A DNA stretch of 64,000 nucleotides, from positions 3,072,001-3,136,000 of the forward strand of contig OY762209.1 of assembly GCA_963665295.1 (NCBI GenBank). Direction: 5' to 3'. Below the pieces are notes generated by a model. The model was not told the DNA's origin and did not search any database. It saw only the letters and a program-made list of their open reading frames with translations. The stretch is from Syntrophorhabdaceae bacterium (GTDB lineage Bacteria; Desulfobacterota; Syntrophorhabdia; Syntrophorhabdales; Syntrophorhabdaceae). The translations under genes were made by a program, and so were the position numbers. This document shows positions 25,489 to 42,454 of the stretch, piece by piece. Within the stretch, counting starts at the first letter, position 1, and each line of letters opens with the position of its first letter.

Positions 25489-26079
25489 GGCAAGGACTCA
25501 AGAAAAAAGATACTCGACGCCGCGTTTGTCGTATTCTCGGAACACGGATACGAGAAGACGAGCATGAGGATGATCGCGGCCGGCGCCGGCCTGAGTGTCG
25601 GCGGTCTTTACCTTTACTTTGAAAATAAGGAGACCCTTTATTCCACGCTCATGGAACGGGTACTGGAAGACCTTTCCAGAGACACGGAGGAGAGGGTAAA
25701 GGAAATCTCCGATCCCGTAAGTGCCTTCAATGCCTTTATCGATATACGGCTTGCCTATGCGGCCAGGAACAAGGAACTGATAATCACCAACAGCAGGGAG
25801 CCGAAACTTGCCCTGGGGGCGGAGATCAGGAAGAGGTTTTTTGAGCGGCAGAGACGGCTTGTTGAGTTGATAGTGAGCAAGGGCATAGAATCCGGTGACT
25901 TCGCGGAATGCGACCCTGCAGAGGCGGCGAAGGTCATAACCTCCGTATTGAGGGGCTATGTGTTTTCTCTTGTTATAGACCAGGACAATCTCTTCTCTCC
26001 GGAGGAGTGCCGCCGTGTGATGCTTAACGGGCTTCTGGCGCGGCAGGGTGGATCGGGGCGGACCGTTACCGGTGTGTGA
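25474..26079 (+). CDS. TetR/AcrR-family transcriptional regulator
   Basis: ILDAA..VF...GY..TS.R.IA..AGLS.GGLY.YF.NKE HTH. Confidence 0.93.
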   Translation: MNRRSGKDSRKKILDAAFVVFSEHGYEKTSMRMIAAGAGLSVGGLYLYFENKETLYSTLMERVLEDLSRDTEERVKEISDPVSAFNAFIDIRLAYAARNKELIITNSREPKLALGAEIRKRFFERQRRLVELIVSKGIESGDFAECDPAEAAKVITSVLRGYVFSLVIDQDNLFSPEECRRVMLNGLLARQGGSGRTVTGV

Positions 26080-26082
26080 CCC

Positions 26083-27237
26083 ATGAGCCTGTTCCTGATC
26101 ACTTTCTTCCTTCTTTATGGAGCAATGCACTCCTACCTGGTGGTGAAGGCACACAACGCCTTCGGTTTTAGCCTCCGGACGCTGATTCCCCTGATCTTCG
26201 TCATGTTGGTCATGGTCTTTTCACCCGTTTTTGTACGCATGTCGGAGAAGGCGGGGTTCACAGGACCGGCATTGCCCATGGCTTACGCTACCTACGTGTG
26301 GATGGGTTTCCTTTTCCTGTTTTTCTGCAGTTCTTTCTGCCTCGACATAGGGAGGCTTGTGATCTACCTGGCCGGCCTTGCGACGGGAAGGACCCTGTTC
26401 CCCGCCGCTTTAGCGGACAGGCTACAATTCTATCTCGCCTTTTCCCTTGCGCTGGTGATCGCGGTGTATGGTTTTGTGGAGGCGGGGAGTATAAGGACCG
26501 AGCACATTGCCATCAAGACCGATAAACTTTCGCAACAGGTAGGGGCACTGAGGATCGTCCAGATTTCAGATGTGCATCTGGGCCTTGTGGCGAGAGAAGC
26601 GCGTCTCAAGGACATTGTGGACAAAGTGAAACAGGCAGACCCCGATATCCTTGTGTCCACAGGAGACCTCCTCGACGGTCAGACGGATTCCCTCGGCGCC
26701 ATGGCGCCCCTGCTTGATGAAGTCCGGCCCCGGTTCGGGAAGTTTGCCATAACAGGCAACCACGAGTTTTATGCGGGATTGGGGAATTTTACCACCTTCG
26801 CCGAAAAGGCCGGCTTCAGGGTGCTTCGTGGGGAGGGCACGGCTATCGAGGGCGTGATCAACGTAGCGGGCGTGGATGACGTTGCAGGAAGACCTATCGG
26901 CCTCTATAGAGGGGTCGAAGAAAAGGCGCTTCTCTCCTGCCTCGGCCCCGGGCGGTTCAATCTCCTCCTCAAGCACAGGCCGGATATTGACCCGGGCTCC
27001 GTGGGGTTCTTCGATCTGCAGCTTTCAGGCCATACCCATGATGGGCAGATATTCCCTTTCGCTTATGTAGTGAAGAGATTTTTCCCCATGGTGGCGGGCC
27101 GTTTCCCGCTTGGCAAGAACTCAGAGCTTTACGTGAGCCGGGGAACGGGTACATGGGGGCCTCCCATCCGGTTTCTTGCCCCTCCGGAGATAACGGTAAT
27201 TGAACTCAGATCGGGCGAGAAGGCGAATCAATTCTGA
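26083..27237 (+). CDS. Membrane-anchored metallophosphoesterase (YkuE/YaeI-like)
   Basis: N-terminal TM helices; SDVH, TGDLLD, GNHE, SGHTH.GQ motifs. Confidence 0.9.
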   Translation: MSLFLITFFLLYGAMHSYLVVKAHNAFGFSLRTLIPLIFVMLVMVFSPVFVRMSEKAGFTGPALPMAYATYVWMGFLFLFFCSSFCLDIGRLVIYLAGLATGRTLFPAALADRLQFYLAFSLALVIAVYGFVEAGSIRTEHIAIKTDKLSQQVGALRIVQISDVHLGLVAREARLKDIVDKVKQADPDILVSTGDLLDGQTDSLGAMAPLLDEVRPRFGKFAITGNHEFYAGLGNFTTFAEKAGFRVLRGEGTAIEGVINVAGVDDVAGRPIGLYRGVEEKALLSCLGPGRFNLLLKHRPDIDPGSVGFFDLQLSGHTHDGQIFPFAYVVKRFFPMVAGRFPLGKNSELYVSRGTGTWGPPIRFLAPPEITVIELRSGEKANQF

Positions 27238-27243
27238 GGGGGC

Positions 27244-27675
27244 TTACTTGTCCCTGCACTCGGCGCAGATACCGTAAATGCACATTACGTGCCCCGTGAC
27301 GAGAAATCCATGGCGCCGGGCGAGTGCATCCTGCAACTCCTCTATCCTGGGATCGAAGGCTTCGACGGTTTTTCCGCACCGCTCACACATGATATGGTCG
27401 TGATGATCATGATCCACGTTATGCTCGTACCTGGTTACGCCGTCTCCGAACTGTACTTCCCGGGCAACACCCGATTGGACGAAGAGCCTCAGGTTGCGAT
27501 AGACGGTAGCCTGCCCTATGGTTTTGTCTTTTTTCTTGACCGCCGCAGTGAGATCCTCGGCGCTTTGATGACCCTCCACAAGGAGGAACTCATTGAGGAT
27601 AGCTTCTCGCTGTTCCGTCATCCTGAGGCCGTGGAGTGATAAATACTCGGCGAGAATTGTTTTTTCCCTTTGCAT
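27244..27675 (-). CDS. fur: Fur-family transcriptional regulator
   Basis: T.QR..IL, ATVYRNL, HHDH.MCERCG, C-terminal CAEC; metal specificity (Fur/Zur/PerR) not certain. Confidence 0.85.
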   Translation of the reverse strand: MQREKTILAEYLSLHGLRMTEQREAILNEFLLVEGHQSAEDLTAAVKKKDKTIGQATVYRNLRLFVQSGVAREVQFGDGVTRYEHNVDHDHHDHIMCERCGKTVEAFDPRIEELQDALARRHGFLVTGHVMCIYGICAECRDK

Positions 27676-27770
27676 AACGTTAGTGGTAACAATACCACCC
27701 GTGTTTTTCCCTGTCAAGGCTCGCGCGCGGGACACGGCATGGAGCCGGGAACGGAAAGATGCCTGCCATA

Positions 27771-29174
27771 TCAGTCCCTTTGCCCCTTGGGCTCCATATG
27801 GGCGCCTATGGCAAAAACCATCTGGAGGTACACCTCGTGATTCGTTTCCGAACCACCGCCGTAGGCGGGATTCCCGCCGCCGGACCGGTCATAGTTGTAC
27901 TGCAGTCTGAACCGTGAATATTCGCTCGGGTTGAACTCCAGGGCTGCAGTCAGACGGTAGGGGTTGTGGAACCTTTGCGGTATTCCGGAGACGCTGTAGT
28001 CGCTGAGGAAAAGGTTGAGACGGTCATAACGCACGCCGATTCTCCATTTATCGACCTGATAGAGGGCCTGGATATATATGCCGTCTTGAGAGCGGGAGAG
28101 GTGGTCTATGGCATAGTTCGCCGTGTTCAGGAGATCGCCGGACTGGTTGCGCCGCATATATTCACCCTGAAGGGTGAGACTTCTCGTTTTCGAGGGCGCC
28201 CACGCGAAGAGGCACTCGAACCCGTACAGGGTCGAATCCCCACGAAAGAGGGTGCCGCCCGCCACAGAATCCGTTTCGGTTGAACCGTGTACCACGTAGG
28301 GGCCGAAGTAGATCTTTGCGGCTTCGTCGAATTTATGGGAGCCCTTGAGAAAACCCGTGAAAGCATGGGGCCCGCCGGAAGAATTCCGGTTGAACATAAC
28401 GTCGTTTTCGCCCTGGAGTGCCTCTACGCCGATGAGGGGCGAGAAGGGGAATGAAGGCCGGTATGTCAACTGGGCCCCCTTCTCCGTAATGCCGTCCCTT
28501 CCCGTGAACCCCCGGTATACGAGGGGAGCGTCGGCAAAGTCCCAATCGTGAGGATGGTTCTCATTATGGACACTGAAGTTGCTCCTGAACTTGCCGGCCT
28601 TCAGCCGCAGGTTTTCCGGAAGGGTTTTGGTGTAGAAGTACGCCTCTTCTATGGTCGATCCCTCTTCCTTGAACGACAGGACGCCGAAGAGGTCAAAATA
28701 CCTGTCCACAGGTGCGAAGAGGGCGATGGAAGCTTCATCGATATTGAAGCCCTTTGTCTGGTCGAGGCCGACACTGGAGTAGCCGGTAATGCCCCTGCTT
28801 TTGAGCTTTCTCTCGCTGACGTTCGAGGAGTAATAAAAGCTGTTAAGCACGAAGGTGACCGCAGGGTTCTTGACGTTTCTGAAGAAATCTCCCCATGCAC
28901 CCGACACCACGAGGCGGTTCCCCTCTTTCGCGTCCGGACCGTAGTCCGATTCAGGCGTGTAAAGGGTCGCCTCACCCGCGCTTTTGTCCGGGGCCTTCCC
29001 GGCGGCGGCCGTTTCTGTCCTTAGGCGATTGATAAGTTCACGCTGTTCCTCGATAGTCTTTTGCTGCTTCTTCAGTATTTCTTCGAGGACGGTCACCCGG
29101 GACTCCAGATCCGCAGAAAACGATGCCCCGGCGAAGAATAACAGCAAAACAGCGGCCAATATAAGCCGAATCAT
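27771..29174 (-). CDS. Outer-membrane beta-barrel, putative metal porin (family often annotated zinc-regulated OM receptor)
   Basis: Signal peptide, coiled coil, then GF...E..., EEAY, KAGKF...F...N..HPHDWDF.D.PL, FSRFRLQY-like and C-terminal IGAH motifs; AAGGAGG RBS. Confidence 0.7.
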   Translation of the reverse strand: MIRLILAAVLLLFFAGASFSADLESRVTVLEEILKKQQKTIEEQRELINRLRTETAAAGKAPDKSAGEATLYTPESDYGPDAKEGNRLVVSGAWGDFFRNVKNPAVTFVLNSFYYSSNVSERKLKSRGITGYSSVGLDQTKGFNIDEASIALFAPVDRYFDLFGVLSFKEEGSTIEEAYFYTKTLPENLRLKAGKFRSNFSVHNENHPHDWDFADAPLVYRGFTGRDGITEKGAQLTYRPSFPFSPLIGVEALQGENDVMFNRNSSGGPHAFTGFLKGSHKFDEAAKIYFGPYVVHGSTETDSVAGGTLFRGDSTLYGFECLFAWAPSKTRSLTLQGEYMRRNQSGDLLNTANYAIDHLSRSQDGIYIQALYQVDKWRIGVRYDRLNLFLSDYSVSGIPQRFHNPYRLTAALEFNPSEYSRFRLQYNYDRSGGGNPAYGGGSETNHEVYLQMVFAIGAHMEPKGQRD

Positions 29175-29266
29175 GATTCCTCCTTTCACGGTTCAAGCCC
29201 CAGGTTCCCTGCGGTTTCCCGGTTTCCCGAACCGTTCCCGCAGGGACACACGGAAGGCGATAAAAC

Positions 29267-29465: not shown

Positions 29466-29494
29466 TTGACAGAAATTAAGTCATACTTAATAAT
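29466..29494 (+). promoter_or_regulatory. Putative promoter with palindromic operator upstream of the XRE/cupin regulator
   Basis: TTGACA at 29466; perfect 7-3-7 palindrome ATTAAGT-CAT-ACTTAAT at 29475-29491; AT-rich -10 region. Confidence 0.55.
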
Positions 29495-29527: not shown

Positions 29528-30070
29528 ATGGACATCGGTCAGAAGGTCAGGCAAATGAGGGTAAAGAGAAACCTGAACATCAGGCAACTCTCGGACCTCG
29601 TGGAATGTACGCCCTCATTGATTTCTCAATTGGAGCGCGGCAAAACGGACCCGTCTATTTCCATGCTGAAAAGGATTGCAAAAGCCCTGGATGCGAATAT
29701 CGTTGATTTCTTCATGGAAAGGGTGGGGCTCGACGACGTGGTGACGGAGGCGAAGGACCGGGTCAATATTCAGCTAAAGAGGTGGGATGCCCACATACAA
29801 TCCCTCGTGAAGAATGTGACGAACAAGAAAATGCAGCCTTTCTACACGGTGATAAGGCCTGGGGGTGGCTCTCATGGGCTCTATTCCCATGATGGAGAGG
29901 AATTCGGTTTTATACTCAAAGGAGAGCTTGAGTTGATTCTCGATGATAAGGTACACAAGGTGCGAGCGAATGAGAGCTTCTACTTTTCCTCCCGGATTCC
30001 CCATAATTGGGGGAACACGGGCACGGAGGACGTAGTGGTCATATGGGTGATTACACCGCCCACTTTTTGA
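29528..30070 (+). CDS. XRE-family HTH regulator with cupin sensor domain
   Basis: N-terminal HTH (LISQLERG..DPSI..L..IA.AL); cupin H.GEE...G.L...F.S..PH. Confidence 0.92.
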   Translation: MDIGQKVRQMRVKRNLNIRQLSDLVECTPSLISQLERGKTDPSISMLKRIAKALDANIVDFFMERVGLDDVVTEAKDRVNIQLKRWDAHIQSLVKNVTNKKMQPFYTVIRPGGGSHGLYSHDGEEFGFILKGELELILDDKVHKVRANESFYFSSRIPHNWGNTGTEDVVVIWVITPPTF

Positions 30071-30203
30071 TGGGATTTTGAAGAAAGAAATGGGCAGGGC
30101 GCGCAAGGATGGGAGTGGCCATGGAGAAGGCGTTTAATTTAAGGGATATGGGAGTTGTCTGCGCCGGTTTGATGCGCGAGAATCAATATGAAGGAGGCTT
30201 CAA

Positions 30204-31691
30204 ATGGCGGTTCTGCCTGAAGTAGACAAGCACTATGGGAAACTGAAATTGTTCATTGACGGGAAGTGGGTGGAGCCTTCTTCCGGCGCGTATTTTGAGA
30301 CGACGAACCCGGCGACGGGCGAGGTTATCGCCGAGGCGCCGGTTGCGTCTCCCGGGGAAGTCGAAAAGGCCATTGCCGGCGCTCACGAGGCGTTCAAGAA
30401 ATGGCGGAACGTCCCTTTCAGGGATAGGACGAAGCTGGTATTCAGCCTGAGGGAGACCTTCGCGAGACACCATGAAGAGCTTGCAAGGGTTCTCGTGCAG
30501 GACCACGGATGTACCATCGATGAAGGGAGAGGCACCATCTCCCGATGCATGGAGAATATCGAAGCCGCGGGAAGCGCCATGTACAGCCTTTACAAGGGAG
30601 AGCATGTGGAGCAACTTGCCAACGGCATAGACTGTTACCTTATAAGAGAGCCCATGGGCGTGTTCCTTATCATAACGCCGGGAAACATCCCCATGCACGC
30701 ATGGTCGTCTTTCGTGCCCTATGCTCTTGCCACAGGGTGTACGGTCATAGTGAAGCCGAGCCGCCAATGCCCGGTATCGGCCGACGCCATGTTCAGAATG
30801 CTCGACGAGACGGGTTTCCCTCCCGGTGTGGCCAACCTGCTTCACATGGGGCCGGAGAGGGGGCTCAACAAGGTGATCCTGTCCGACCCCAGGGTAAAGG
30901 GCGTGGGACTCATCGGCTCGACGAGGGTGAGCAAGGAGTTGTTCGAGCTTTGCGGAAAATACGGCAAACGCTCTTCCCTGAACGGCAACGGTAAGAATTA
31001 CATCGTCATAATGCCTGACTGCAGTCTCGACGACGCGGTGCAATATATACTCCGAGGGTGCTTCGGCATGACGGGGCAACGATGCCTCGGCTCCGACAAT
31101 GTGGCGGTCATAGGAGAGACTGCGAGATATGAAGAATTGAAGGAGAAGCTGATCGCGGCTTCCAAGGCGATGAGGATAGGCTATGGCCTCGACGAGACCA
31201 CGGAGATGGGCCCTCTCACCACGAGTGAAGGACGAGAGAAGGTGTTCCGGTTCATCGAATCCGGACTTGAGGCAGGCGCCGTACTCCTCCTGGACGGACG
31301 CCTTGTGGCTGCGGAACTCGAAAAGGGTTATTTCATGGGTCCCACAATCTTTGAAGGCGTGACCACGGACATGCATATCGCGAGGGAAGAGGCCTTCGGC
31401 CCCATGTGCAATCTCCTGAGGGCCCGGGACCTTGATCAGGCGATAGAATGGATCAACGGGACAAACTACGGCCATTCCGCGTGCATTGTTACGGAAAGCG
31501 GGAAGAATGCCCGGAAGTTTATCAGGGAATGCGAAGTGGGTAATGTGGGCGTGAACGCGGGCATCCCTCAGCCGTACGCATTTTTCGGACTTGGGTCCAA
31601 GAAGGATTCCTTTTTCGGTAACTCCAAATCCAGGATGGATTCAGTGAAGCTGTTTCTCGATGAAAAGACGGTGACATTAAGGTGGGTGTGA
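30204..31691 (+). CDS. CoA-acylating aldehyde dehydrogenase (methylmalonate-semialdehyde dehydrogenase-like); candidate 2-formylglutarate dehydrogenase
   Basis: NPATGE, REPMGV, KPS, GST, GNGKNY in place of ELGGK, GQRC catalytic Cys, EEAFGP, GVNAGIPQP, K.VT.RW C-terminus typical of the MMSDH subfamily. Confidence 0.8.
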   Translation: MAVLPEVDKHYGKLKLFIDGKWVEPSSGAYFETTNPATGEVIAEAPVASPGEVEKAIAGAHEAFKKWRNVPFRDRTKLVFSLRETFARHHEELARVLVQDHGCTIDEGRGTISRCMENIEAAGSAMYSLYKGEHVEQLANGIDCYLIREPMGVFLIITPGNIPMHAWSSFVPYALATGCTVIVKPSRQCPVSADAMFRMLDETGFPPGVANLLHMGPERGLNKVILSDPRVKGVGLIGSTRVSKELFELCGKYGKRSSLNGNGKNYIVIMPDCSLDDAVQYILRGCFGMTGQRCLGSDNVAVIGETARYEELKEKLIAASKAMRIGYGLDETTEMGPLTTSEGREKVFRFIESGLEAGAVLLLDGRLVAAELEKGYFMGPTIFEGVTTDMHIAREEAFGPMCNLLRARDLDQAIEWINGTNYGHSACIVTESGKNARKFIRECEVGNVGVNAGIPQPYAFFGLGSKKDSFFGNSKSRMDSVKLFLDEKTVTLRWV

Positions 31692-31848
31692 GCAGTCTTT
31701 TTTCCGGCTTCCCGCCTTCGGCGGCGTGAACCGCTTCGCCGGCCCAGGGACCCGCCCGTGGCTGAAAAAGGGCAACGGAATCTGATATACTGTAAGGGCT
31801 TGGTTAAGAGCCGCATGCAGATGCGGAGACAAAAAGGAGGAGAGCGCA

Positions 31849-32931
31849 ATGTGTGAAGAATGTGAAGACCTTGGCAGAAGGAATTTTCTGAAGAGTGCTC
31901 TTATCGGCGGTGCGGCGGTGGGAATGGGTCTTTTCGACCATAACCTTCTTCTGGCGCAGAACACCAACATAAAATTCAGCACCTGGCATCCACCTGTCAG
32001 CCGGGAAGTAAGAACGGTATGGATACCCATGCTCGAAGAAGTGAAGAAGAAGAGCGGCGGCAAGGTGGGATACACCATGTACGCCGGGGCCGCTCTCGGC
32101 AAGGGACCGGAGCATTTCGACATTGTGGCGAAGGGCCTCTCCGATATGGGGTATTTTACCGCTACCTGGACCCCGGGCCGGTTCCCCCTTACCGATGTCC
32201 TTTCGCTGGCAGTTTGGGTGGACGGCAAAGATGTGGCGGCGGACATAGGGAATGCCGTATATCAGCGGGCGCTCAGGGATGAGTTCAAGAACGTGAAAGT
32301 GCTGGAGTTGAACGGCTGCATCCAGTCCTTTATCTGGACCAAGAAACCCGTTTCCAAAATGGCGGACCTCAAAGGCATGAAACTGAGGTCACCGGGAGGC
32401 CATCAGACCAACTATATCAAATCACTCGGAGCCGAGCCGGTTTTTATGCCCCTGGGCGACGTCTATATGGCTATGGAAACGGGAACGGTGGACGGTATCG
32501 TCACCTGCCCCCCTCTGATTCTCGCATATAAGCTTTTCGAAGTGGCCAAGTATGCGACGGTCCTCACCTTCGGGTGCGTCTCCGAAGGCACGGTCATGAA
32601 CATGAATAGCTGGAACAGGCTTCCCGCGGACCAGAAAAAGGTGGTGGAGGAAGTCTGCACCAATCCCTTCAAGTCGACGGGAGGGCTGGACAAGGGCGAT
32701 TATCAGGTCATTATGAAGGACATCCAGAAGTCGGGGGTCAAGCTTATCGACCTTCCGAAGCCTGAAGCCGAACTCTGGTACAAGAGTTTCCAGGACGTTA
32801 CCAGGAAATGGGTTACCGACCTCGAGGCGAAGAAGTTGCCTGCGAGAAGGGTCGTGGCCATAATGAACGAGGAATGTGAGAAGAGAAGGGTGAACCTGGT
32901 GGCTTGTCCGCCTGAATTTAAGAAGATATAG
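31849..32931 (+). CDS. TRAP transporter substrate-binding protein (DctP) with Tat signal
   Basis: GRRNFLKS Tat motif; PGRFPL, DLKGMKLR, LGAEPV.MP..DVY.A.ETG.VDG. Confidence 0.9.
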   Translation: MCEECEDLGRRNFLKSALIGGAAVGMGLFDHNLLLAQNTNIKFSTWHPPVSREVRTVWIPMLEEVKKKSGGKVGYTMYAGAALGKGPEHFDIVAKGLSDMGYFTATWTPGRFPLTDVLSLAVWVDGKDVAADIGNAVYQRALRDEFKNVKVLELNGCIQSFIWTKKPVSKMADLKGMKLRSPGGHQTNYIKSLGAEPVFMPLGDVYMAMETGTVDGIVTCPPLILAYKLFEVAKYATVLTFGCVSEGTVMNMNSWNRLPADQKKVVEEVCTNPFKSTGGLDKGDYQVIMKDIQKSGVKLIDLPKPEAELWYKSFQDVTRKWVTDLEAKKLPARRVVAIMNEECEKRRVNLVACPPEFKKI

Positions 32932-32941
32932 GAAGAGGCCC

Positions 32942-33436
32942 ATGGGCACCCTGAAAATTGTGAGAACGGTTATCGAAAAGGTTGTCCGGTTCTCCGGCAC
33001 GGTGGGGATGATATTCGTTCTCCCCCTGATGTTCCTCACTACGGCGGACGTGGTAGGAAGAGGTTTCTTCAACAAACCGATTGCCGGCACCTTTGAACTT
33101 TCAGAATACATGCTGGCCGTGATAATCCTGCTGGGCGCCGCCTATACCCAGCAGGTGAAGGGCCACGTGGCGGTCGATTTTATCACTTCCCGGTTTGCCA
33201 CGAAAACCCGGCTTATGTGCCAGATCGTGACCCTGGTGCTCAGCCTCTTCATCGTTACCCTGCTCGCATGGCAGGGTTTCAAGCTGGGAATAGAGGAGAC
33301 AGGCGTCACTGATCAACTGAGAGTGCCGCGGGCGCCTTTCAAAATGATGGTCGGCGTGGGAGGGGCCCTCCTGTGGCTTCAGATACTTTTCGACCTCATT
33401 GATACCATTACCAGCCTCAAGAGGAGGGAAACGTGA
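32942..33436 (+). CDS. TRAP transporter small permease (DctQ)
   Basis: Four TM helices; DV.GR..FN.PI.G..EL, GHV.VD. Confidence 0.9.
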   Translation: MGTLKIVRTVIEKVVRFSGTVGMIFVLPLMFLTTADVVGRGFFNKPIAGTFELSEYMLAVIILLGAAYTQQVKGHVAVDFITSRFATKTRLMCQIVTLVLSLFIVTLLAWQGFKLGIEETGVTDQLRVPRAPFKMMVGVGGALLWLQILFDLIDTITSLKRRET

Positions 33437-34740
33437 GTCCTGTTGCCATCGGAATCCTCGGCTGTGCCTTGCTCATGGTCCTCCTCTTTCTCGGGATGCC
33501 CATCACCTTCGTCATGATGTTTGTCGGCTTCATCGGCATATGGTCCCTTTCGGGACTGGACGCCGCCCTTCCCATCATCGCAAGCACTCTTTACGAAACC
33601 GCTGCCCACTACCCTTTCACCATAATCCCTCTCTTTGTCCTTATGGGCGGTTTTGCGGATAACTCCGGTATAACCACGAGACTTTACGACACTTTTGATA
33701 AATGGTTCAGGAGGCTTCCCGGAGGACTCGGTATCGCGACGATCGTCGCCATTGCGGGTTTCTCGGCCATCAGCGGGTCATCGGTGGCGACATCCGCCGC
33801 TTTTGCGAAGACGGTTATACCCGAAATGAGACGATATAATTATAGCCCGAAATTCGCGAGCGGTATCGTGGCGGCCGGCGCCACCATCGATTTTCTCATA
33901 CCCCCCAGTATCGGTTTTGTTGTATATGGCATGCTTACGGAACAATCCATCGGAAAACTTCTTATCGCGGGCATGCTCCCCGGACTTCTCCTTGCAGCGT
34001 TCTTCATCACGATCATTGTGGGATGGGTCAAGATAAACCCGTCCGTCGCTCCCGTGCCCCCCGGCCGGGTTACGTGGAAAGACAAGATCTTCGCCCTATG
34101 GGGCATGTGGGAGACGATACTTGTTTTCCTCATCACCATAGGGGGGATGTACCTCGGTTATGTAAACCCTACCGAAGCCGGAGGAATAGGGTGTATCGCC
34201 CTGTTTATCATCACCCTTCTGAAAAGGGAGCTTACATGGAAACAGTTTGTGGTCAGCCTTTACGAGACCACAAGGGTAACTTGCATGGTTATGTTTCTTG
34301 TGGCGGGGGCGAGCCTCTTCAGCTACTTTCTTGCCCTATCCACCATTCCGGCCGCAGCCTCGGCGTTTATCGGCGGCCTTGGTGTCTCCAAATATATTGT
34401 CCTCGCTATAGTGGTAGGTGTTTATCTTGTCCTCGGTTGCTTCCTTGACGCCGTCTCCATGATGGTGCTTACCATGCCCGTTATCTTCCCTGTTATGATA
34501 GGACTCGGGTTTGATCCCATATGGTTCGGGGTGGTCTGCGTGCTCATGATGAACGCGGGACTGATTACACCCCCTGTGGGCCTCAATGTGTACACTATTG
34601 CAGGCATTGTGAGGGATGTGCCCATGAAGGAGGTCTTCAAAGGCGCCACGCCCTTCCTTATCGCCATTCTTGTAACGACGGTCATTCTTACGGTGTTTCC
34701 CGTAATTGCGACCATATTGCCGGCGCAAATGGGACGTTGA
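33433..34740 (+). CDS. TRAP transporter large permease (DctM)
   Basis: IPLFVLMG, SGSSVA, LIPPS, PTEA, TPPVGLN. Confidence 0.93.
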   Translation: MSPVAIGILGCALLMVLLFLGMPITFVMMFVGFIGIWSLSGLDAALPIIASTLYETAAHYPFTIIPLFVLMGGFADNSGITTRLYDTFDKWFRRLPGGLGIATIVAIAGFSAISGSSVATSAAFAKTVIPEMRRYNYSPKFASGIVAAGATIDFLIPPSIGFVVYGMLTEQSIGKLLIAGMLPGLLLAAFFITIIVGWVKINPSVAPVPPGRVTWKDKIFALWGMWETILVFLITIGGMYLGYVNPTEAGGIGCIALFIITLLKRELTWKQFVVSLYETTRVTCMVMFLVAGASLFSYFLALSTIPAAASAFIGGLGVSKYIVLAIVVGVYLVLGCFLDAVSMMVLTMPVIFPVMIGLGFDPIWFGVVCVLMMNAGLITPPVGLNVYTIAGIVRDVPMKEVFKGATPFLIAILVTTVILTVFPVIATILPAQMGR

Positions 34741-34765
34741 CAGGCGTCATACCGGGAAGGGGATC

Positions 34766-35239
34766 ATGAAAGAGATAGTATTTACGTTGAACGGAAGATC
34801 GACGGTTGCCCGGGTCGAAGATAATGAGACCCTCCTTCAAACGCTGAGAAAGCGCCTCTCCATAAAGAGCGTGAAAGAGGGCTGCTCTATAGGGGAATGC
34901 GGGGCCTGTACTGTATTGATCGATGATGAAGCCCATTATGCATGCCTCACTCTCGCTTCAAAGGTGGACGGCCATGATGTGAAAACGGTGGAATTCCTGG
35001 GCGTTGAGAATGTCCTTCACCCGCTTCAAAAGGCCTTCGTCCATTCAGGGGCGGTCCAGTGCGGGTACTGCACCCCGGGTATGCTGCTCTCCGCATACAG
35101 TCTTCTCAGGAAGAACAGCACCCCTGATGAGGAAGAGATCAGGGAAGCCATAAGCGGCAACCTGTGCCGGTGCACAGGATACATTCAAATCATAGAGGCT
35201 GTGAAATATGCTGCCGGAATTCTTAAGTCAGAGGGCTGA
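34766..35239 (+). CDS. Molybdenum hydroxylase 2x[2Fe-2S] subunit (NdhS/CoxS-like)
   Basis: GCSIGECGACTV...C, QCGYCTPG, NLCRCTGY. Confidence 0.93.
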   Translation: MKEIVFTLNGRSTVARVEDNETLLQTLRKRLSIKSVKEGCSIGECGACTVLIDDEAHYACLTLASKVDGHDVKTVEFLGVENVLHPLQKAFVHSGAVQCGYCTPGMLLSAYSLLRKNSTPDEEEIREAISGNLCRCTGYIQIIEAVKYAAGILKSEG

Positions 35240-36044
35240 TACCAGGGAACAGGCAGTCGCTTTGCTGTCCTCACTGGAGGACGTGTCGGTGCTTGCAGGC
35301 GGCACGGACCTGCTTGTCAGGATGGGACGAGGCGAGACACACAGGCACATCGTCGATATCACAAATATTCCGGACCTTCGCACCATCGAACAGGAGGACG
35401 GCACTCTTTACGTGGGTAGCCTGATCACTCACCGGGCGATCCACATGAGTCCCTCGATCAGGGAAGGTGCGCCAAGCCTTTCTGAAGCATGCGGGTTGGT
35501 CGGATCTCCCCAGATAAGGAATATGGGAACCATAGGCGGTAATCTTGCGAATGCGTCACCTGCTGCCGACAGTCTGTCTCCCCTGTTGATACATGATGCC
35601 CGTATCGTACTTGAATCGACAAGAGGAAAAAGGACGGTCGGGTTGGAGGACTTTATCACCGACCCTTACCGGACATCCATGCGAAGTGATGAACTGCTTG
35701 CCTTTATTGAAATCAATGGGCTTAGGGGTTACAGAGAAGGGTACCAACGCGTTGCGAAGAGAGCGACGTGGGCTATATCGAGACTCTCCGTGGCATGGGC
35801 GGTAAAGGAAGAAAACGGATGCTATCAGGATGTGCGCCTCGCCATCGGGTCGTGCACTCCCATGCCGTTCAGGCCGCGGGAAGTAGAGCGATTTCTGGCG
35901 GGAAAAGAGAAGAGTGTCCGTGTTCAGGGAGAGGCGGTAGCCATGATTGTTGGCGGAATAAGGCATGCAAGTGGGGACAGACCTTCCTTTGCGTACAAGA
36001 TACCTGTCCTCGAGGCGCTGCTCGATGAGATACTGAGGGGTTAG
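35208..36044 (+). CDS. Molybdenum hydroxylase FAD subunit (NdhF/CoxM-like)
   Basis: LAGGTDL, QIRNMGTIGGNLANASPAAD. Confidence 0.92.
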   Translation: MLPEFLSQRADTREQAVALLSSLEDVSVLAGGTDLLVRMGRGETHRHIVDITNIPDLRTIEQEDGTLYVGSLITHRAIHMSPSIREGAPSLSEACGLVGSPQIRNMGTIGGNLANASPAADSLSPLLIHDARIVLESTRGKRTVGLEDFITDPYRTSMRSDELLAFIEINGLRGYREGYQRVAKRATWAISRLSVAWAVKEENGCYQDVRLAIGSCTPMPFRPREVERFLAGKEKSVRVQGEAVAMIVGGIRHASGDRPSFAYKIPVLEALLDEILRG

Positions 36045-36047
36045 ACG

Positions 36048-38201
36048 ATGCGCGTAGGCATGGATGCAGATAGGGTAGGTGTACTCGACAAGGTACGGGG
36101 AAAGCCCGTCTTTGCAGGGGACATGGACATGGCGGGGATGCTTTACGGTTCAATCTACAGGTCCACGAGACCCCACGCACTCATCAGGGCTATCGATGTC
36201 TCCGACGCCTTGTCTCTCCCCGGAGTGACAAGGGTGATAACCTGGAAAGACATTCCCGGCGAGAACTCTTTCGGCATAATGAAGAAAGACCAGCTGTTTC
36301 TTGCGGAAGACAGAGTCCGCTGCGTGGGAGAGCCGATTCTTATCGTGTTGGCGGAAAGCGAAGAGATTTCACGAAGGGCCCTATCCCGGGTAAAGGTGAC
36401 CTACGAGGATATCGAGGCAATTCATGATCCTTTTCATGCACAAAACACGTCGGTCCTGATACACGGCGAGGGCAACCGGCTTTGCCTTAGAACGCTGGTA
36501 AAAGGTGACGTGGAAAAAGGGTTTAACGAATCCGACCTGATTGTGGAGCATACATACGGTACCACATGGGTCGACCATGGATTTCTCGAAACGGAATCGG
36601 GCATCGGGTGGATAGACGAGAACGGGAAGATCGCGATAAACTCGTCCACTCAGAACACGCACTACAAAAGAAGAGAGATTTCCCGGCTCCTTCAGATCCC
36701 CGAAGACCGGTTAAGAGTGATACAGGCGGTTACGGGGGGAGGCTTTGGAGGTAAGCTGGATATGACCGTAGAGGGCTATATAGCCCTTTCCGTCTACCTT
36801 ACGGGCAGGCCTGTCTCAATTCGCTATACGAGGGAAGAGAGTTTCCTTTCAAATACCAAGAGGCATCCCCTTTCCATCCGATACAGGACCGGATTCAATA
36901 AAGACGGCCGGATTATGGCGGTGAGCGCCAACGTTGTGGGGGATACAGGCCCCTATATTTCATACGGAGAGGTGGTCTGTCTGAGGGTTGCGATCCACGC
37001 GACCGGTCCCTATGAGGTGCCGAACGTGCATGTCGAGAGCAGGATGTTCTACACGAATAACCCTGTCTCAGGCGCCATGAGGGGCTTCGGGATTCCGCAG
37101 CTTGCATTTGCCCACGAGTCCCAGTTGGACGAGGCGGCAGCAAGGCTCGGCGTCGATCCCCTTGACATGAGAATGAAAAACGCCTTGAGGAGGGGTTCTC
37201 TTACTGCAACGCAACAGGTTCTCGAACACAGCGCGGGGTTTCCGGAAACCCTGAAAAAGATCGAGCCCTTCTGGAGGGGCAGGAGGAAGAAAGATAAGGG
37301 CGCAGGGTTCGGGCTCGGATGCATGTTTTACGGGATAGGCAACACGGGATCATCCAACCCGTCCCATTGTTACGTGAGGCTTACCGACGACGGTAAGATC
37401 GCTCTTCATTCAGGGGTTTGCGACATCGGGCAGGGTTCTGATACCGTGTTGTGCCAGATACTTTGTGAGACCCTCAATGTGCGACCGGCGGATGTAGTGC
37501 TTGCTCCATGCGACACCGATATCTCGAAGGACGCGGGCTCGTCATCGGCCAGCCGGCAGACCTACATATCGGGACGGGCAGTCTATGAAGCCGCTCTGAA
37601 AATGAGGTCGTATCTCGACAAGGCCGGCTTCTACAACGGGCTTGATCTCAAGGATGTCTATAGCTCCGCAAGAGACCGCGGGGAGATTCAGTTCGAAGGG
37701 GATTTCGATCCCCCCACGACAGCAGTAGACAATATGACCTGTAAAGGGACGCCTTACGCCACCTATGCCTTTGCGACCCACATGACGGAGGTGCGCGTGG
37801 ATGAACGAACCGGCTCATGCAAGGTAACCAGGGTGTATGCTTCCCATGATGTGGGCAGGGCGATAAACGCGAAAAGTGTGAAGGGGCAGATTTACGGTGG
37901 AATAGCCATGGGTATAGGCCTGGCCTTGATGGAGGAGTTTATCCCTTCCAGGACGAAGTCCTTAGACAATTATTACATGCCCACATCCATGGATATGCCC
38001 GAGGTGGAGATACTTCTCGTGGAAGACGAGGAGCCCACGGGCCCATACGGCGCAAAAGGAGTCGGTGAACCCGCCCTGATCCCTCAGGCGGCGAGCATCA
38101 TAAACGCGATAAGCGATGCCGTAGGGGTGAAGGTCTATCAGCTCCCCTGTCACATAGAAAGACTAAAAAGGCTTATAGAGGACGGAAAGTCCGGAAAATA
38201 G
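36048..38201 (+). CDS. Xanthine-dehydrogenase-family Mo subunit; probable nicotinate dehydrogenase large subunit (single chain)
   Basis: GGGFGGK, GAMRGFG, DIGQG, ASRQT, QIYGG, AKGVGEP motifs; substrate inferred from adjacent enamidase and Hnr genes. Confidence 0.8.
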   Translation: MRVGMDADRVGVLDKVRGKPVFAGDMDMAGMLYGSIYRSTRPHALIRAIDVSDALSLPGVTRVITWKDIPGENSFGIMKKDQLFLAEDRVRCVGEPILIVLAESEEISRRALSRVKVTYEDIEAIHDPFHAQNTSVLIHGEGNRLCLRTLVKGDVEKGFNESDLIVEHTYGTTWVDHGFLETESGIGWIDENGKIAINSSTQNTHYKRREISRLLQIPEDRLRVIQAVTGGGFGGKLDMTVEGYIALSVYLTGRPVSIRYTREESFLSNTKRHPLSIRYRTGFNKDGRIMAVSANVVGDTGPYISYGEVVCLRVAIHATGPYEVPNVHVESRMFYTNNPVSGAMRGFGIPQLAFAHESQLDEAAARLGVDPLDMRMKNALRRGSLTATQQVLEHSAGFPETLKKIEPFWRGRRKKDKGAGFGLGCMFYGIGNTGSSNPSHCYVRLTDDGKIALHSGVCDIGQGSDTVLCQILCETLNVRPADVVLAPCDTDISKDAGSSSASRQTYISGRAVYEAALKMRSYLDKAGFYNGLDLKDVYSSARDRGEIQFEGDFDPPTTAVDNMTCKGTPYATYAFATHMTEVRVDERTGSCKVTRVYASHDVGRAINAKSVKGQIYGGIAMGIGLALMEEFIPSRTKSLDNYYMPTSMDMPEVEILLVEDEEPTGPYGAKGVGEPALIPQAASIINAISDAVGVKVYQLPCHIERLKRLIEDGKSGK

Positions 38202-38224: not shown

Positions 38225-39370
38225 ATGGGAACTCTCGCAATCAGAAATATCGGTGTAATATTCACGGGTGATATTGATAATCCCCTCGTCGAAGGTCCTG
38301 TCTCCATATTGGTTGACGACGGAAGGATAAAGCGCATAGACAAGCAGGCCCTTGAGGCTGAGAAAGTCATAGACGCCAGGGGTATGACTGTGTGCCCGGG
38401 ACTTATCGACTCTCACTCTCATCCTGTATTCGGCGATTTTACCCCACGTCAGAATATGCTCGGTTTCATCGAGAGCGGCCTCCACGGCGGCGTAACGAGC
38501 ATGATATCGGCGGGTGAGGTCCATCTTCCGGGGAGGCCTACCGACCCCAAGGGCACGAAAGCCCTTGCCCTCCTCGCGCAAAAGTCTTTCGCCAAACTGC
38601 GGCCGGCAGGTGTGAAGGTGTATGGCGGCGCGCTCATACTCGAGAAGGGGCTCAGGGAAGAGGACTTCAAGGAACTCTCGGAGGACGGCGTCTGGCTTGT
38701 GGGTGAAATAGGCCTCGGCAGCGTGAAGGCGGCGGAAGAGGCCCGGGTCATGGTTGACTGGGCCAAGAAATACGGCATGAAGGTGCTCATGCACGTGGGC
38801 GGGACTTCGGTGCCCGGCAGTTCCACCGTTACCTGCCAGGACGTGCTTATCGCAAACCCGACCGTGGCGTGCCACTTGAACGGCGGACCGACCGCCATCC
38901 CCGTGGAAGAAGCGGAAAGGGTGATCCGTGAGACGCAATGCGCCATCGAGATCGTCCATTGCGGTAACCCGAAGGCGGCCATGGAGATCGTGGGGATCAT
39001 GAAGTCCGCCGGCATGCTCCACCGGCTCATCATTGGAAACGACGCCCCTTCCGGCACGGGGGTCATTCCCCTTGGCATCTGGAGGATGATCAATTTTGTA
39101 TCCGCTCTTTCGGCAGTCCCCGCGGAAACCGCGGTATGCCTCGCCACAGGGAATACAAAGAGGGTGTTTTCGCTCCCCCACGGTCTTGTGAGGGAAGGGG
39201 AAGATGCGGACCTGCAGATAATCGACGCACCCATGGGTTCCGCGGGCAAGGACGCGAAAGGCGCGATTGAGGCGGGAGACATCCCCGGCATAGCCATGGT
39301 GATTATCGATGGTGTGGTGAAGGCCCAGGTAAGCAGGAATACACCGCCGCCCGTGCGGAAGACCGCGTAG
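38225..39370 (+). CDS. ena: Enamidase (1,4,5,6-tetrahydro-6-oxonicotinate amidohydrolase)
   Basis: Amidohydrolase D-x-H-x-H; long stretches matching the recalled E. barkeri enamidase: LHGGVT.MISAG..H.PGRP, GTKALA, RPAGVKV.GGA.ILEKGL, GGTS.PGSSTVT, H.NGGPTAI, GNDAPSGTG.IPLG, GDIPGI, SRNTPP. Confidence 0.92.
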   Translation: MGTLAIRNIGVIFTGDIDNPLVEGPVSILVDDGRIKRIDKQALEAEKVIDARGMTVCPGLIDSHSHPVFGDFTPRQNMLGFIESGLHGGVTSMISAGEVHLPGRPTDPKGTKALALLAQKSFAKLRPAGVKVYGGALILEKGLREEDFKELSEDGVWLVGEIGLGSVKAAEEARVMVDWAKKYGMKVLMHVGGTSVPGSSTVTCQDVLIANPTVACHLNGGPTAIPVEEAERVIRETQCAIEIVHCGNPKAAMEIVGIMKSAGMLHRLIIGNDAPSGTGVIPLGIWRMINFVSALSAVPAETAVCLATGNTKRVFSLPHGLVREGEDADLQIIDAPMGSAGKDAKGAIEAGDIPGIAMVIIDGVVKAQVSRNTPPPVRKTA

Positions 39371-39439: not shown

Positions 39440-40963
39440 ATGAAGATAGACCTGGAGAAGTGCAAGGGTTGTGGGCTCTGCGAGGAAGTCTGCCCCCTGG
39501 GGGTGATTACCGTGGAAGGGCGCAAAGTGCAGATAGGCGAAGGATGCGTTGACTGCAAATCGTGCACGAAGGTATGTCCCCAGGGCGTTCTGACACCCGA
39601 AGCACCGGACAAACGGACCTCCTGTGACGCCTGTCCCATCATGTGCGCCATTCCGGAAGGATTTTATGGGGCTTGCCTTCGCTATTTCAACGAGGGCGGG
39701 CAGATAAAGAGAAAAGGAAGGATTCACACCTATGAGGAGGTCGAAAACCTCATGAGGTCGGAGGGTGATAAAACGATAGGAAGGCCGCTTATCACCGGTA
39801 TCGGTTCAGGTACTACCTATCCTGACTTCAGGCCCTCGCCGTTCATCGTGAGGGGTGTCCGGGACGGAATAGATATCGTGACGGTAGTGACCGAGGCGCC
39901 TCTCAGTTACAGCGGGGTGAAGATGAAGGTGGATACGGACCTTTACCTTGGGGAGGAGGGCAGGAAGGTCTTTGTACGAAAGAAGGGGAAGAGACATATC
40001 GGTCATTTGTGCACCGAGGAATATGGCTCAAAGATGCTTTCCATGGGGGGTGTCAATATCCTTACCTCCAAAGACGGCATGTTCGCGGCAAAGGTCCTCT
40101 TCGATTTTTTGAAGGGCAAGAAGATCAAGGTTGAAATCGAGGACGGCCCCACCCTTGAATTGTCCCTCGGAAAAGCGCCGAAAGTCAACGGAGTATCGGA
40201 AGAGCATATGAGGGTGGGGTGCGGCAGCGCGGTTTCAGGCCTCTTTGCCCCCTACATGATGAAGGCGGCGGACGAGGTGATCGTCCTTGACGGTCATATC
40301 ACCGGATTGTTCAGCGAGCACCCTTCGGGGAGGTATCTCAGGAAGACCCGGTCGGCCGTTTCCATCAAAGGCCGGAAGAGTACGGAGGGCAGATATTTTC
40401 TGGACAAGGGTACGGGATGGGGCGGCACCAATATAGAGGAGCCCCTCGACGTGGTCGGAGAAATCGACCCTGCCCGGTGTGCCGAGGGCATGACCCTCCT
40501 TATTACGGAGACCACGGGACGGAAGGCGGCATTCTTCAGGCTGAAGGACGGGCAATTTGTTGAAGATCAGCCCACTCCGGCGGCGACGGAGTTTCTCCTG
40601 ACCCTTAGAGACTCCTGTGAGGACTCGAAGGTGAGCGCCGTATTTGCGGCAGGTGTCGGCGGCTCTGCAAGGGCGGGGGTGACCAGGAACCCGGTGAAGC
40701 TTACGCGGGCGGTCCACGCCGGGAAGGTGTCCATCTCCATAGGCGGGGCGAAACCCTTCATCTTTCCAGGTGGCGGGATCAATTTTCTCGTGGACCTGGA
40801 AAAAGTGAAATATGGCAGCATCTACCTTTCGCCGACCCCCTCCTTCATTATCCCGGTAGAATATACGATGACTCTCGAAACCTTCGAGGAAATAGGGGGA
40901 CACTTGGACGCCCTCAGACCTTTGGAGGAGGTGTTGAAACCGGATGCTTCCGAGGGAGAGTAA
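39440..40963 (+). CDS. hnr: 6-hydroxynicotinate reductase
   Basis: Two CxxCxxCxxxCP motifs, CDACPIMC...GAC, VTVVTEAPLSYSG, TEEYGSKM, MR.GCGSA, GGSAR, PGGGINF.VD, PVEYTM, GGH. Confidence 0.92.
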   Translation: MKIDLEKCKGCGLCEEVCPLGVITVEGRKVQIGEGCVDCKSCTKVCPQGVLTPEAPDKRTSCDACPIMCAIPEGFYGACLRYFNEGGQIKRKGRIHTYEEVENLMRSEGDKTIGRPLITGIGSGTTYPDFRPSPFIVRGVRDGIDIVTVVTEAPLSYSGVKMKVDTDLYLGEEGRKVFVRKKGKRHIGHLCTEEYGSKMLSMGGVNILTSKDGMFAAKVLFDFLKGKKIKVEIEDGPTLELSLGKAPKVNGVSEEHMRVGCGSAVSGLFAPYMMKAADEVIVLDGHITGLFSEHPSGRYLRKTRSAVSIKGRKSTEGRYFLDKGTGWGGTNIEEPLDVVGEIDPARCAEGMTLLITETTGRKAAFFRLKDGQFVEDQPTPAATEFLLTLRDSCEDSKVSAVFAAGVGGSARAGVTRNPVKLTRAVHAGKVSISIGGAKPFIFPGGGINFLVDLEKVKYGSIYLSPTPSFIIPVEYTMTLETFEEIGGHLDALRPLEEVLKPDASEGE

Positions 40964-40986: not shown

Positions 40987-41925
40987 GTGAGGGCGGGAAG
41001 GGAAGCCGGCAAGCCCACGGGCATTTGCGCCCCTATCCGGTCTTGTCCTCCAAGGCGGTTCGCCGTGCTGATTGAGGTCGGTCCGGCTAGCATTGTGGTG
41101 ACAGGATACAGGGACGGGAAGCCCCTGGAGTTCAACAGGAAAGAGATAGAGGGCTGTCTTACCGGAGCGTTGACCGATGTGAGAGATTACCTCCCTGTGT
41201 TGAGGCAGAAGGGCTACAGGATCAAAAAGCCCTCATCCATGCCGGGAGTTGCCATGAGAATGGCCGAGGCAGTAAAGGCCGTAGACGAACTCACCCTGAC
41301 GCCCATGGCGGCAGTGGCAGGGGCCGTGGCCGACGTTGTGAAGGAACGGTTGAAGGAGGGCGCTGATTTTATTTCAGTCAACAACGGCGGCGACATATCG
41401 GTCTTCAACTGCTCGGGCAGAACGCTGCGAATAGGCATCGGCGATATAGGAAGGGCCGAGGCTGCCCCCCGCGTTTTGGGGATCAGGGGACTTATTGACT
41501 ATGGGCTGGCAACGAGCGGGTTCGGCGGGCGGAGTTTTACCCTGGGCCTGGCCGACACGGTAACTGTGGTCGCCCGAACGGGGGCGATTGCCGATGCGGC
41601 AGCCACCTTGATCTGTAATAAGACAAACGTCGAAACCGACCATGTGGTACGGAGGAAGGCGGGTGAGATAGACCCTTGCTCGGACATTGCCGATGAATGG
41701 GTTACGGTGCGAATAGGAGACCTGGATGACCGCCTTATAGAGGAGGCGCTTCAGAGGGGGCTCGCTTCGGCCCTGGCGTTGAAGGGGCGTAATCTCATCG
41801 TTGATGCCGTAATAACATTGAGGGGTCAATCGGTCGGCACCCTGGACGGAAGCGAAAACATATATATGGAGGGAGAGAATGGAGATAAGAAAGCTTGTTA
41901 CGATTGTGGAGGATATCTTCGCTGA
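40987..41925 (+). CDS. UPF0280 / ApbE-like protein (putative FAD:protein FMN transferase); start uncertain
   Basis: TPMAAVAGAVAD, NNGGDI, GLATSGFGGRSFTLGLAD.VTV, ADAAATLI.N. Confidence 0.82.
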   Translation: MRAGREAGKPTGICAPIRSCPPRRFAVLIEVGPASIVVTGYRDGKPLEFNRKEIEGCLTGALTDVRDYLPVLRQKGYRIKKPSSMPGVAMRMAEAVKAVDELTLTPMAAVAGAVADVVKERLKEGADFISVNNGGDISVFNCSGRTLRIGIGDIGRAEAAPRVLGIRGLIDYGLATSGFGGRSFTLGLADTVTVVARTGAIADAAATLICNKTNVETDHVVRRKAGEIDPCSDIADEWVTVRIGDLDDRLIEEALQRGLASALALKGRNLIVDAVITLRGQSVGTLDGSENIYMEGENGDKKACYDCGGYLR

Positions 41926-42454
41926 CGGCGAGAAGAAGATGGAACAGCCGGTGAGGAAGGTGGCAGCGATTGCGGTCATAAAGAACCCCTGTGCAGGTGA
42001 GTACCGGGAGGACCTTGCCGAGCTGACCGACAACGGGGACGAATTGGGAAAGATCCTGGGTGAAAGGGCAGTGGCGGCGCTGGGCGCGGGAAAGGCGGCG
42101 CAGAGCTATGGCAAGGCCGCGATAGTAGGGGAGAAAGGTGAGCTTGAACACGCGGCGGCGTTGCTCCATCCGAAACTTGGAACGCCCTTGAGAAATGCGG
42201 TGGGCGGCGGCAAGGCCATAATACCATCGGTCAAGAAGCTGGGAAGGATGGGGGACGAGATAGACATTCCCCTTCATTTCAAGGACGCTGCGTTCGTCCG
42301 TTCTCATTTTGACGGCATGACTGTATCCGTAAATGATGCGCCCAAATCGGACGAAATCCTCGTGGCGATCGCGGTGACCGATGGAGGGAGGCCTCATCCG
42401 AGAGTCGGGGGGCTGAAGAAGGATGAAGCTAAAGGAGAAGACGGCCTAAGATAA
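41879..42454 (+). CDS. AA_synth (DUF1185) family protein, function unknown
   Basis: IRK......E, AVIKNP.AG.Y, SYGKAAIVG..GELEH.AA..HP, D.PL.FK.AA..RSHFD, DAP..DEI, GRP.PRVGGL. Confidence 0.82.
   Translation: MEIRKLVTIVEDIFADGEKKMEQPVRKVAAIAVIKNPCAGEYREDLAELTDNGDELGKILGERAVAALGAGKAAQSYGKAAIVGEKGELEHAAALLHPKLGTPLRNAVGGGKAIIPSVKKLGRMGDEIDIPLHFKDAAFVRSHFDGMTVSVNDAPKSDEILVAIAVTDGGRPHPRVGGLKKDEAKGEDGLR

Follow-up and report, generated by a model that had tools for sequence, protein, structure and literature searches.

The aldehyde dehydrogenase (ALDH) gene at 30204-31691 of the window, by which we mean the whole 64,000-nucleotide stretch analysed here (C1:3072001-3136000 of a one-contig genome of 5.5 Mb that is 98% complete), most likely encodes the fourth enzyme of nicotinate breakdown, predicted to give glutaryl-CoA without ATP. 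As an earlier note on this DNA had proposed, its product probably converts 2-formylglutarate, CoA and NAD(P)+ to glutaryl-CoA and CO2/HCO3-. The genomic evidence for such a 2-formylglutarate dehydrogenase comprises linkage, co-occurrence, ALDH6 residues, the Hgd/Mgm branch not being found in the genome and the presence of glutaryl-CoA-consuming enzymes. That glutaryl-CoA is the product, from either of the two substrates weighed below, we regard as highly probable. The net equation given in the note, from nicotinate to glutaryl-CoA, balances by our own arithmetic (C6 H12 N O5 plus CoA-S on each side). We infer the substrate, CoA use, decarboxylation, pocket geometry and cofactor from the comparisons that follow.

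The ALDH gene and its surroundings

The gene is an intact single ORF of 495 aa on the + strand, directly preceded on its 5' side by a ribosome-binding-type site (GAAGGAGG), and motifs, PDB alignment, predicted fold and trees point to an ALDH6/MMSDH-type dehydrogenase with R114, N161, N260, R293 and C294 as key residues. Translation and alignment to methylmalonate semialdehyde dehydrogenases (MMSDHs) revealed the motifs and the MMSDH-like C-terminus that had been claimed: TPGNIP, GLIGST, SLNGNGKN and GQRC start at residues 158, 235, 258 and 291 and align with TPFNFP, SFVGST, ALGGAKN and GERC, respectively, of the solved MMSDHs 5tjr, 4zz7 and 1t90. Across clade A (88 distinct near-full-length sequences of at least 55% identity taken from the collected loci), N260-G-N-G-K-N265 is kept in 88/88 members, G160 in 82/88 and I162 in 87/88, so these motifs are not sequencing noise. 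Most of the named close relatives belong to Syntrophorhabdaceae.

Judged by homology, the ALDH gene heads a complete ndh-ena-hnr nicotinate cluster. Twelve co-oriented genes span 29528 to 42454 on the + strand, with intergenic gaps of at most 69 bases from dctP on and of 133 and 157 bases flanking the ALDH gene. A sigma70-like site (29466..29494, +) lies upstream of the regulator gene with an 11/12 match, a consensus match only (14 sites versus 7.9 +/- 2.6 in shuffles). Domain matches identify an XRE-cupin (PuuR-like) regulator (29528..30070), which adjoins the ALDH gene in 16/52 orthologue loci; the ALDH comes right after it here and is indeed the first enzyme gene of the cluster, as previously noted. 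Further domain matches denote the TRAP solute-binding protein DctP (31849..32931; present in 31/52 orthologue loci), the small and large TRAP permeases DctQ (32942..33436) and DctM (33433..34740), an NdhS-like 2Fe-2S subunit of molybdenum hydroxylase (34706..35239) and an NdhF-like FAD subunit (35208..36044). The molybdopterin subunit (36048..38201) carries NdhL and NdhM in one chain, with 3hrd_A as the top PDB match (E 1.9e-110) and 3hrd_B matching its C-terminal part. It is followed by the enamidase gene (Ena, 38225..39370; one genome copy), for which 2vun is the only PDB match at E <= 1e-10 (E 5.9e-128), and by the gene for a 6-hydroxynicotinate reductase-like Fe-S protein (Hnr, 39440..40963; 39-41% to two plasmid proteins annotated as 6-hydroxynicotinate reductase). 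A UPF0280/ApbE-like protein (40987..41925) and a PF06684 (DUF1185, AA_synth) protein (41879..42454), the latter type also found in Hgd-type and aerobic clusters, were both assigned by domain match. At C1:3525271 the genome has a nicotinamidase gene with 59% identity to the cluster type.

DUF1185 (PF06684) genes are neighbours of Ena or Ena-like amidohydrolase genes not only in ALDH-type, Hgd-type and aerobic clusters but also in non-nicotinate ones (window 41879-42454; L160, L177, L178, L180, L183, L184). RidA enamine deaminases have a chorismate-mutase-like fold, and on the basis of this shared fold DUF1185 may, by analogy, hydrolyse the enamine released by enamidase. The DUF1185 structure paper makes no mention of nicotin- or enamidase, among six terms looked for.

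The remainder of the window holds several recognizable groups of genes. A flavodiiron protein, a rubrerythrin and a flavodoxin-like reductase form an oxidative-stress trio (20390-23005); the interval 23164-29189 encodes a FeoA-FeoB fusion, a TetR regulator, a metallophosphoesterase, a Fur-like ORF recognized by eye (27244-27735) and a 472-aa minus-strand ORF that has no Pfam/NCBIfam match and looks like an outer-membrane protein. Downstream of the nicotinate genes is a bamA-skp-lpxD-fabZ-lpxA-oxidoreductase-lpxB-msbA-DUF374-waaA lipid A operon (42615-53457), and a DDE transposase gene (PF13701, 14652-16175) adjoins a sensor kinase/response regulator cluster (6948-14258).

Catalytic residues, substrate pocket and predicted reaction

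ALDH6 enzymes are defined by a catalytic Cys and Asn, by the replacement of the catalytic Glu with Asn, Leu or Phe, and by two carboxylate-binding arginines, Arg107 and Arg283 in 1T90 (PMC12041015, in the part accessible to us). All 88 clade A sequences have C294 (1T90 Cys284) and the oxyanion-hole residue N161 (1T90 Asn153), R114 and R293 (the equivalents of Arg107 and Arg283) are likewise present in 88/88, and the general-base position is N260 in 88/88, a column in which the genome's own SSADH-like control has E. By alignment, the full ALDH6 catalytic residue set is present in the window ALDH. The replacement of ELGGK by NGNGKN reported earlier is thus real, yet it is no mark of divergence from MMSDHs, which also lack that Glu (PMC12041015); at the level of sequence N260 shows kinship with MMSDH rather than divergence from it. 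We also rejected the missing Glu as a sign of inactivity, because its loss defines ALDH6.

The ten best PDB sequence matches of the ALDH are MMSDH/ALDH6A1 entries, and an AlphaFold model (46-sequence alignment; pLDDT 94.2) has MMSDHs as all of its top 10 fold matches (TM-score 0.94-0.96, 32-34% identity in the structural alignments). Database names for the ALDH read MMSDH. TIGR01722 (MMSDH) is the best NCBIfam match, with 372.8 bits under a cut-off of 448.5; on the same model three more clade A sequences score 376-396 bits, two clade B sequences (see below) 441 and 469, other ALDH6 sequences 503-609 and the archaeal L050 protein 395. The ALDH is MMSDH-like in its predicted working, yet with a score under the cut-off it is not a TIGR01722 member. 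Its scores are far under the cut-offs of the SSADH, KGSADH and glutarate semialdehyde dehydrogenase families, and it has N260 instead of the general-base Glu.

We then compared the pocket of the 88 clade A sequences with that of 23 other ALDH6 sequences, assigning positions by alignment and ALDH2 numbering. Residues 162-169, which we take to line the substrate channel (ALDH2 numbering), differ consistently: F162, M165 and W169, nearly fixed in the 23 other sequences, are replaced by I (87/88), H (88/88) and S (88/88), and V/I166 is replaced by A (87/88). In the sequences intact at the C-terminal positions, K475 is found in 86/87 and R477 in 87/87 clade A members, versus R477 in 1/23 other ALDH6. 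Position 187 is R in 70/88 and W in 15/88 clade A sequences and E in 18/23 others, and D298 is present in 88/88 where most other ALDH6 have S, A or Q. The real departures of the ALDH from MMSDH are, as far as alignment can tell, the predicted pocket (I162, H165, A166, S169, K475, R477) and R187. Pocket residues and gene context argue against (methyl)malonate semialdehyde as the substrate. NADP is favoured where the acidic residue near the 2'-phosphate is absent (PMC8160307, as available in part), and R187 therefore hints at the use of NADP+.

Enamidase yields (S)-2-formylglutarate and ammonia (PMC9304392, PMC7356986). This aldehyde, which is a malonate semialdehyde with a substituent at position 2, is what Ndh, Hnr and Ena would together make from nicotinate. 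For B. subtilis MMSDH, the β-carboxylate departs as bicarbonate before CoA transfer, MMSDH binds CoA after NADH release, and propionaldehyde is also converted, to propionyl-CoA (PMC12041015). The MMSDH reaction as noted earlier accordingly stands for acyl-CoA formation, and its released CO2 must be replaced by bicarbonate for the B. subtilis enzyme. By analogy with the latter, C294 would add to the formyl group, with N161 stabilizing the oxyanion and hydride passing to NAD(P)+; with no Glu at position 260 the thioester would not be hydrolysed; R114 and R293 would hold the β-carboxylate, to be lost as bicarbonate/CO2, and the glutaryl group would finally pass to CoA. The carboxyethyl arm could be housed by the widened pocket (I162, A166, S169) together with H165, K475 and R477. 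It is from this analogy that we infer CoA-dependent acyl transfer with β-carboxylate release by the window ALDH. On the other hand, as MMSDH accepts propionaldehyde, ALDH6 residues do not prove decarboxylation.

Glutaryl-CoA would then pass to glutaryl-CoA dehydrogenase and glutaconyl-CoA decarboxylase, for both of which the genome has homologues. The product of C1:4550891-4552048, near crotonase and 3-hydroxybutyryl-CoA dehydrogenase genes, matches the glutaryl-CoA dehydrogenase 3mpi first and scores 427.7 bits on NF045552, under the cut-off of 470, and the genome encodes a homologue of the glutaconyl-CoA decarboxylase A subunit (1pix, E 1e-223). Conversely, probes from L160, a locus with Hgd and Mgm, returned no Mgm match and a best Hgd match of 32% in this 98% complete genome; the Hgd probe matches 3cky first, and the Mgm label of its companion rests on size, B12 domain and context. 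Mgm was also matched in 0/151 genomes of a survey of the phylum, while the same probe matched G162 at 71%, and two Bacillota genomes with the Hgd/Mgm branch gave no ALDH6-type match at E <= 1e-60. Of the five ALDH matches in the window's own genome, one is ALDH6-like. The ALDH, the sole gene of this type there, may double as a general MMSDH. An acyl-CoA dehydrogenase encoded at 18606-19784 of the window reaches 244 bits on the model for glutaryl-CoA dehydrogenase and is therefore not the likely enzyme for that step. The genome encodes at least 11 more homologues of the molybdenum hydroxylase large subunit, which suggests broad catabolism of aromatics and heterocycles.

Association with enamidase and the two ALDH6 clades

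The association predicted in the note, of ALDH orthologues with ena/hnr, held in the loci that we collected. From 68 loci, 16 at or below 45% identity were dropped; Ena or Hnr is encoded in 39 of the remaining 52 and in 19/21 of those with full 10 kb flanks, some nicotinate-cluster marker in 48/52 and nicotinamidase in 13/52, and the order of cluster genes differs greatly between lineages. Two of the marker-less loci are short contigs (L009, L046) from assemblies with Ena elsewhere. The other two (L018, L037) are true exceptions in which clade A genes with the same pocket residues lie outside nicotinate clusters, so that clade A may serve other substrates. At L018:4761-13505 a clade A paralogue is accompanied by a beta-aspartyl-peptidase-like amidohydrolase, a DHDPS-family aldolase and a BaiCD-like (old-yellow-enzyme-type) flavoenzyme, in a genome that also carries a full nicotinate cluster (L007). 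At L037:9989-15860 the clade A gene comes after a probable TAXI-TRAP transporter. Next to it lie genes for an Hgd-family dehydrogenase, with a 45% match to L160 Hgd, then for the large and swivel subunits of AcnX and for a UxaA-type dehydratase; the L037 genome gave no Ena match, and the locus may represent a different way of making a malonate semialdehyde substituted at position 2. In two genomes in which the clade A gene has left the cluster, its tail-to-tail neighbour is a radical-SAM-like gene of 423 aa (L310:6749-8020 and L311:1328-2599), similar in both; the L310 copy has a weak PF04055 match.

In the reverse direction, we inspected the 91 Ena-centred loci closest to the window Ena (one listing being the best 80 of at least 540). 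Among these best-listed 91, a clade A gene is present in 56 and a clade B gene in 8, never the two together; the 27 that lack both are mostly on short contigs. With full flanks, clade A or B is present in 33/36. Of the 27 ALDH-less loci, 10 were examined at the genome level and 4 of these have clade A elsewhere; in one batch of genome checks the figure was 4/5 for Ena loci without a nearby gene. The L101 genome has Mgm. The Ena genomes behind L072, L158 and L139, whose completeness is unstated, have neither clade, and their loci have no Hgd. An Ena cluster with an Hgd-like gene (L075:13476-14444; 57% to L160 Hgd) comes from a genome without a match to Mgm, clade A or clade B, a possible further branch or a binning/completeness issue. 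A Dethiobacter cluster (L168:4711-9328) combines a clade A ALDH with a shortened Hgd-family gene (223 aa). Among cultured anaerobes that bear the cluster, strain NaphS2 (L020) and Acididesulfobacillus acetoxydans (L046, L226) have clade A. Five of eight plasmid Ena-like regions (L179, L180, L182, L183, L184) have no Hnr annotation and were not counted as nicotinate clusters, and the unannotated L181 served only as a search seed.

The survey of the phylum (151 genomes at least 80% complete, the window's own included) gave a similar picture. Ena was matched at E <= 1e-60 in 23/151 genomes, and once G034 (a 45% match with no other cluster gene nearby) was set aside, 22 genomes with Ena of at least 50% identity remained. 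All 22 carry one of the two clades and none carries both: clade A in 14, of which three are truncated at contig ends, and clade B in 8. Neither clade was found at these identity levels in any of the 129 genomes without such an Ena. Co-occurrence at the genome level is therefore complete, 22/22, if clade B is counted. Kinship means that these genomes are not independent samples, even though the 22 are drawn from 14 of the sampled families, and for this reason we set Fisher tests on the genome tables aside as evidence. A glutaryl-CoA dehydrogenase-like gene (E <= 1e-105 to the window genome's own) is present in 19/22 Ena genomes versus 37/129 others.

Clade B consists of L104:5187-6620 and 13 similar sequences, is 33-42% identical to clade A and takes its place in the nicotinate clusters of other Desulfobacterota. 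Clade B keeps R114, R293 and C294, with both arginines in 14/14, and has Q260, R475, R477, S298 and mostly R187. Since clade B straddles the TIGR01722 cut-off, some members will receive a plain MMSDH annotation. The ALDH6-like group received a support of 98 in a first tree (quick method; 139 rows reduced to 68 by thinning at 80% identity) and of 100/100 against three outgroup rows in a second tree of 37 chosen rows. Clades A and B are each fully supported; in the first tree the two fall together with archaeal L050 (SH-aLRT 93), whereas the second puts B basal and does not reject a single A+B clade (p-AU 0.066). With the trees in disagreement, independent recruitment of the two clades was not upheld. 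The phylogeny suggested in the note thus places the ALDH with ALDH6, and in the second tree clade A falls outside the crown of annotated MMSDHs rather than within it. Whatever the relation of A and B, the slot after enamidase is by sequence one of ALDH6-type chemistry with either clade.

Alternative readings and known nicotinate pathways

The alternative that deserves most discussion leaves product and energetics unchanged and differs in substrate: 2-formylglutarate, a β-oxo acid, could lose CO2 first, spontaneously or via DUF1185, and the ALDH could then acylate glutarate semialdehyde to glutaryl-CoA. The propionaldehyde activity of MMSDH (PMC12041015) would fit, the ALDH arginines could bind the distal carboxylate instead, and aerobic clusters without the ALDH, often with two DUF1185 copies (94 copies in 54/80 best-listed loci), go via glutarate; because decarboxylation without the ALDH is possible in aerobes, glutarate semialdehyde stays alive as a substrate. 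We nonetheless consider this sequence of events rather unlikely, on the grounds that both β-carboxylate arginines are retained in 88/88 clade A and 14/14 clade B sequences, that the extra basic residues 475/477 suit a dicarboxylate, that column 169 is Arg in the genome's own SSADH-like protein and Ser in the ALDH, and that DUF1185 is also encoded in the Hgd-type locus L160, where decarboxylation would waste the substrate of Hgd.

Two other readings bear on CoA use and on the cluster itself. A CoA-independent dehydrogenase releasing free glutarate, with another residue as the base for thioester hydrolysis, could be imagined from the remodelling of clade A around the active site, with its invariant acid D298 (88/88), from the score under the cut-off for CoA-acylating MMSDHs (372.8 vs 448.5) and from the known aerobic route through glutarate (PMC3511419, as seen in part). 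We hold it to be very unlikely: Glu is present at position 260 in 0/88 clade A sequences, clade B, which shares the slot, has Q260 and S298 and, of two members scored, one exceeds the cut-off with 469 bits while the other reaches 441, and no recurrent CoA-transferase family is among the neighbour families identified. It is still harder to credit, and in our view extremely improbable, that an ordinary (methyl)malonate semialdehyde dehydrogenase of valine, β-alanine or pyrimidine breakdown merely travels with the cluster, as the database naming, the lack of a second ALDH6-type gene in the genome and the off-cluster copies L018 and L037 might suggest. The presence of clade A or B matches that of Ena exactly across the 151 genomes, six genomes (G050, G062, G086, G097, G134, G150) keep a separate, more typical MMSDH beside the cluster copy, and the nearly fixed F162, M165 and W169 are replaced.

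Under the preferred reading, a 2-formylglutarate dehydrogenase, the ALDH would catalyse the committed step of the lower branch by which Desulfobacterota and some Bacillota break down nicotinate anaerobically. On balance we favour, for the anaerobic Desulfobacterota (sulfate reducers and syntrophs), a third THON lower branch formed by a dedicated decarboxylating, CoA-acylating 2-formylglutarate dehydrogenase, drawn from two exchangeable ALDH6 lineages (33-42% identical) that would have in common an additional arginine loop to bind the second carboxylate and probably use NADP+ as cofactor, a branch in which one protein replaces the B12-dependent branch. The ALDH is thus a candidate for the step after enamidase in bacteria with neither the B12 branch of Eubacterium barkeri nor the aerobic arrangement, present in roughly a seventh of the genomes sampled from the phylum (22/151). 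If this is true, a vitamin-derived N-heterocycle reaches the glutaryl-CoA node without an ATP-costly activation, which matters for energy-limited syntrophs; a common 'MMSDH' annotation is corrected; and the known substrate range of ALDH6 is widened to a physiological substrate larger than methylmalonate semialdehyde. We found no assignment of an MMSDH-type enzyme to 2-formylglutarate in the literature searched, which covers few subscription journals, and an earlier proposal may exist. Within a known pathway the lower branch takes a new form here; because chemistry and end node are both known, it fills a gap and opens no new class.

The aerobic route includes a step from glutarate to glutaryl-CoA. 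We took the best 80 of at least 593 Ena loci from aerobic alpha- and gammaproteobacteria; 51 of the 80 have full flanks and 45 an Hnr gene. None of them has an ALDH6 gene, and 5 have distant ALDHs (23-32%), so 2-formylglutarate is evidently disposable by other means. The Azorhizobium nicotinate route passes via glutarate (Kitts et al. 1992, as cited in PMC3511419).

Compared with the aerobic THON route of Azorhizobium, Bradyrhizobium and roseobacters, the window cluster has in common ndh, hnr, ena, two conserved unknown proteins and the glutarate/glutaryl-CoA node, as far as the available sources go. In contrast, the aerobic route has no ALDH6 (best 80 loci) and must re-activate free glutarate, and aerobic clusters have an ABC importer and a ferredoxin-NADP reductase instead. 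With nicotinate fermentation by E. barkeri (Ndh 3HRD, Hnr, Ena 2VUN, Hgd 3CKY, Mgm; Alhapel et al. 2006, as cited in the accessible parts of PMC9304392 and PMC3511419), it shares the first three enzymes, the UPF0280 and DUF1185 neighbours and (S)-2-formylglutarate, whereas it has an ALDH6-type gene instead of Hgd/Mgm, a fused NdhL-NdhM and a TRAP importer. With the MMSDHs of ALDH6/cd07085 (B. subtilis IolA 1T90, 4zz7, 5tjr, TIGR01722), finally, the ALDH shares the fold, the catalytic Cys/Asn, the lack of a general-base Glu and the two arginines, but it belongs to a separate, fully supported clade below the HMM cut-off, with a remodelled pocket, R187 where MMSDH has Glu, and a nicotinate context in place of the iol or β-alanine context of MMSDHs.
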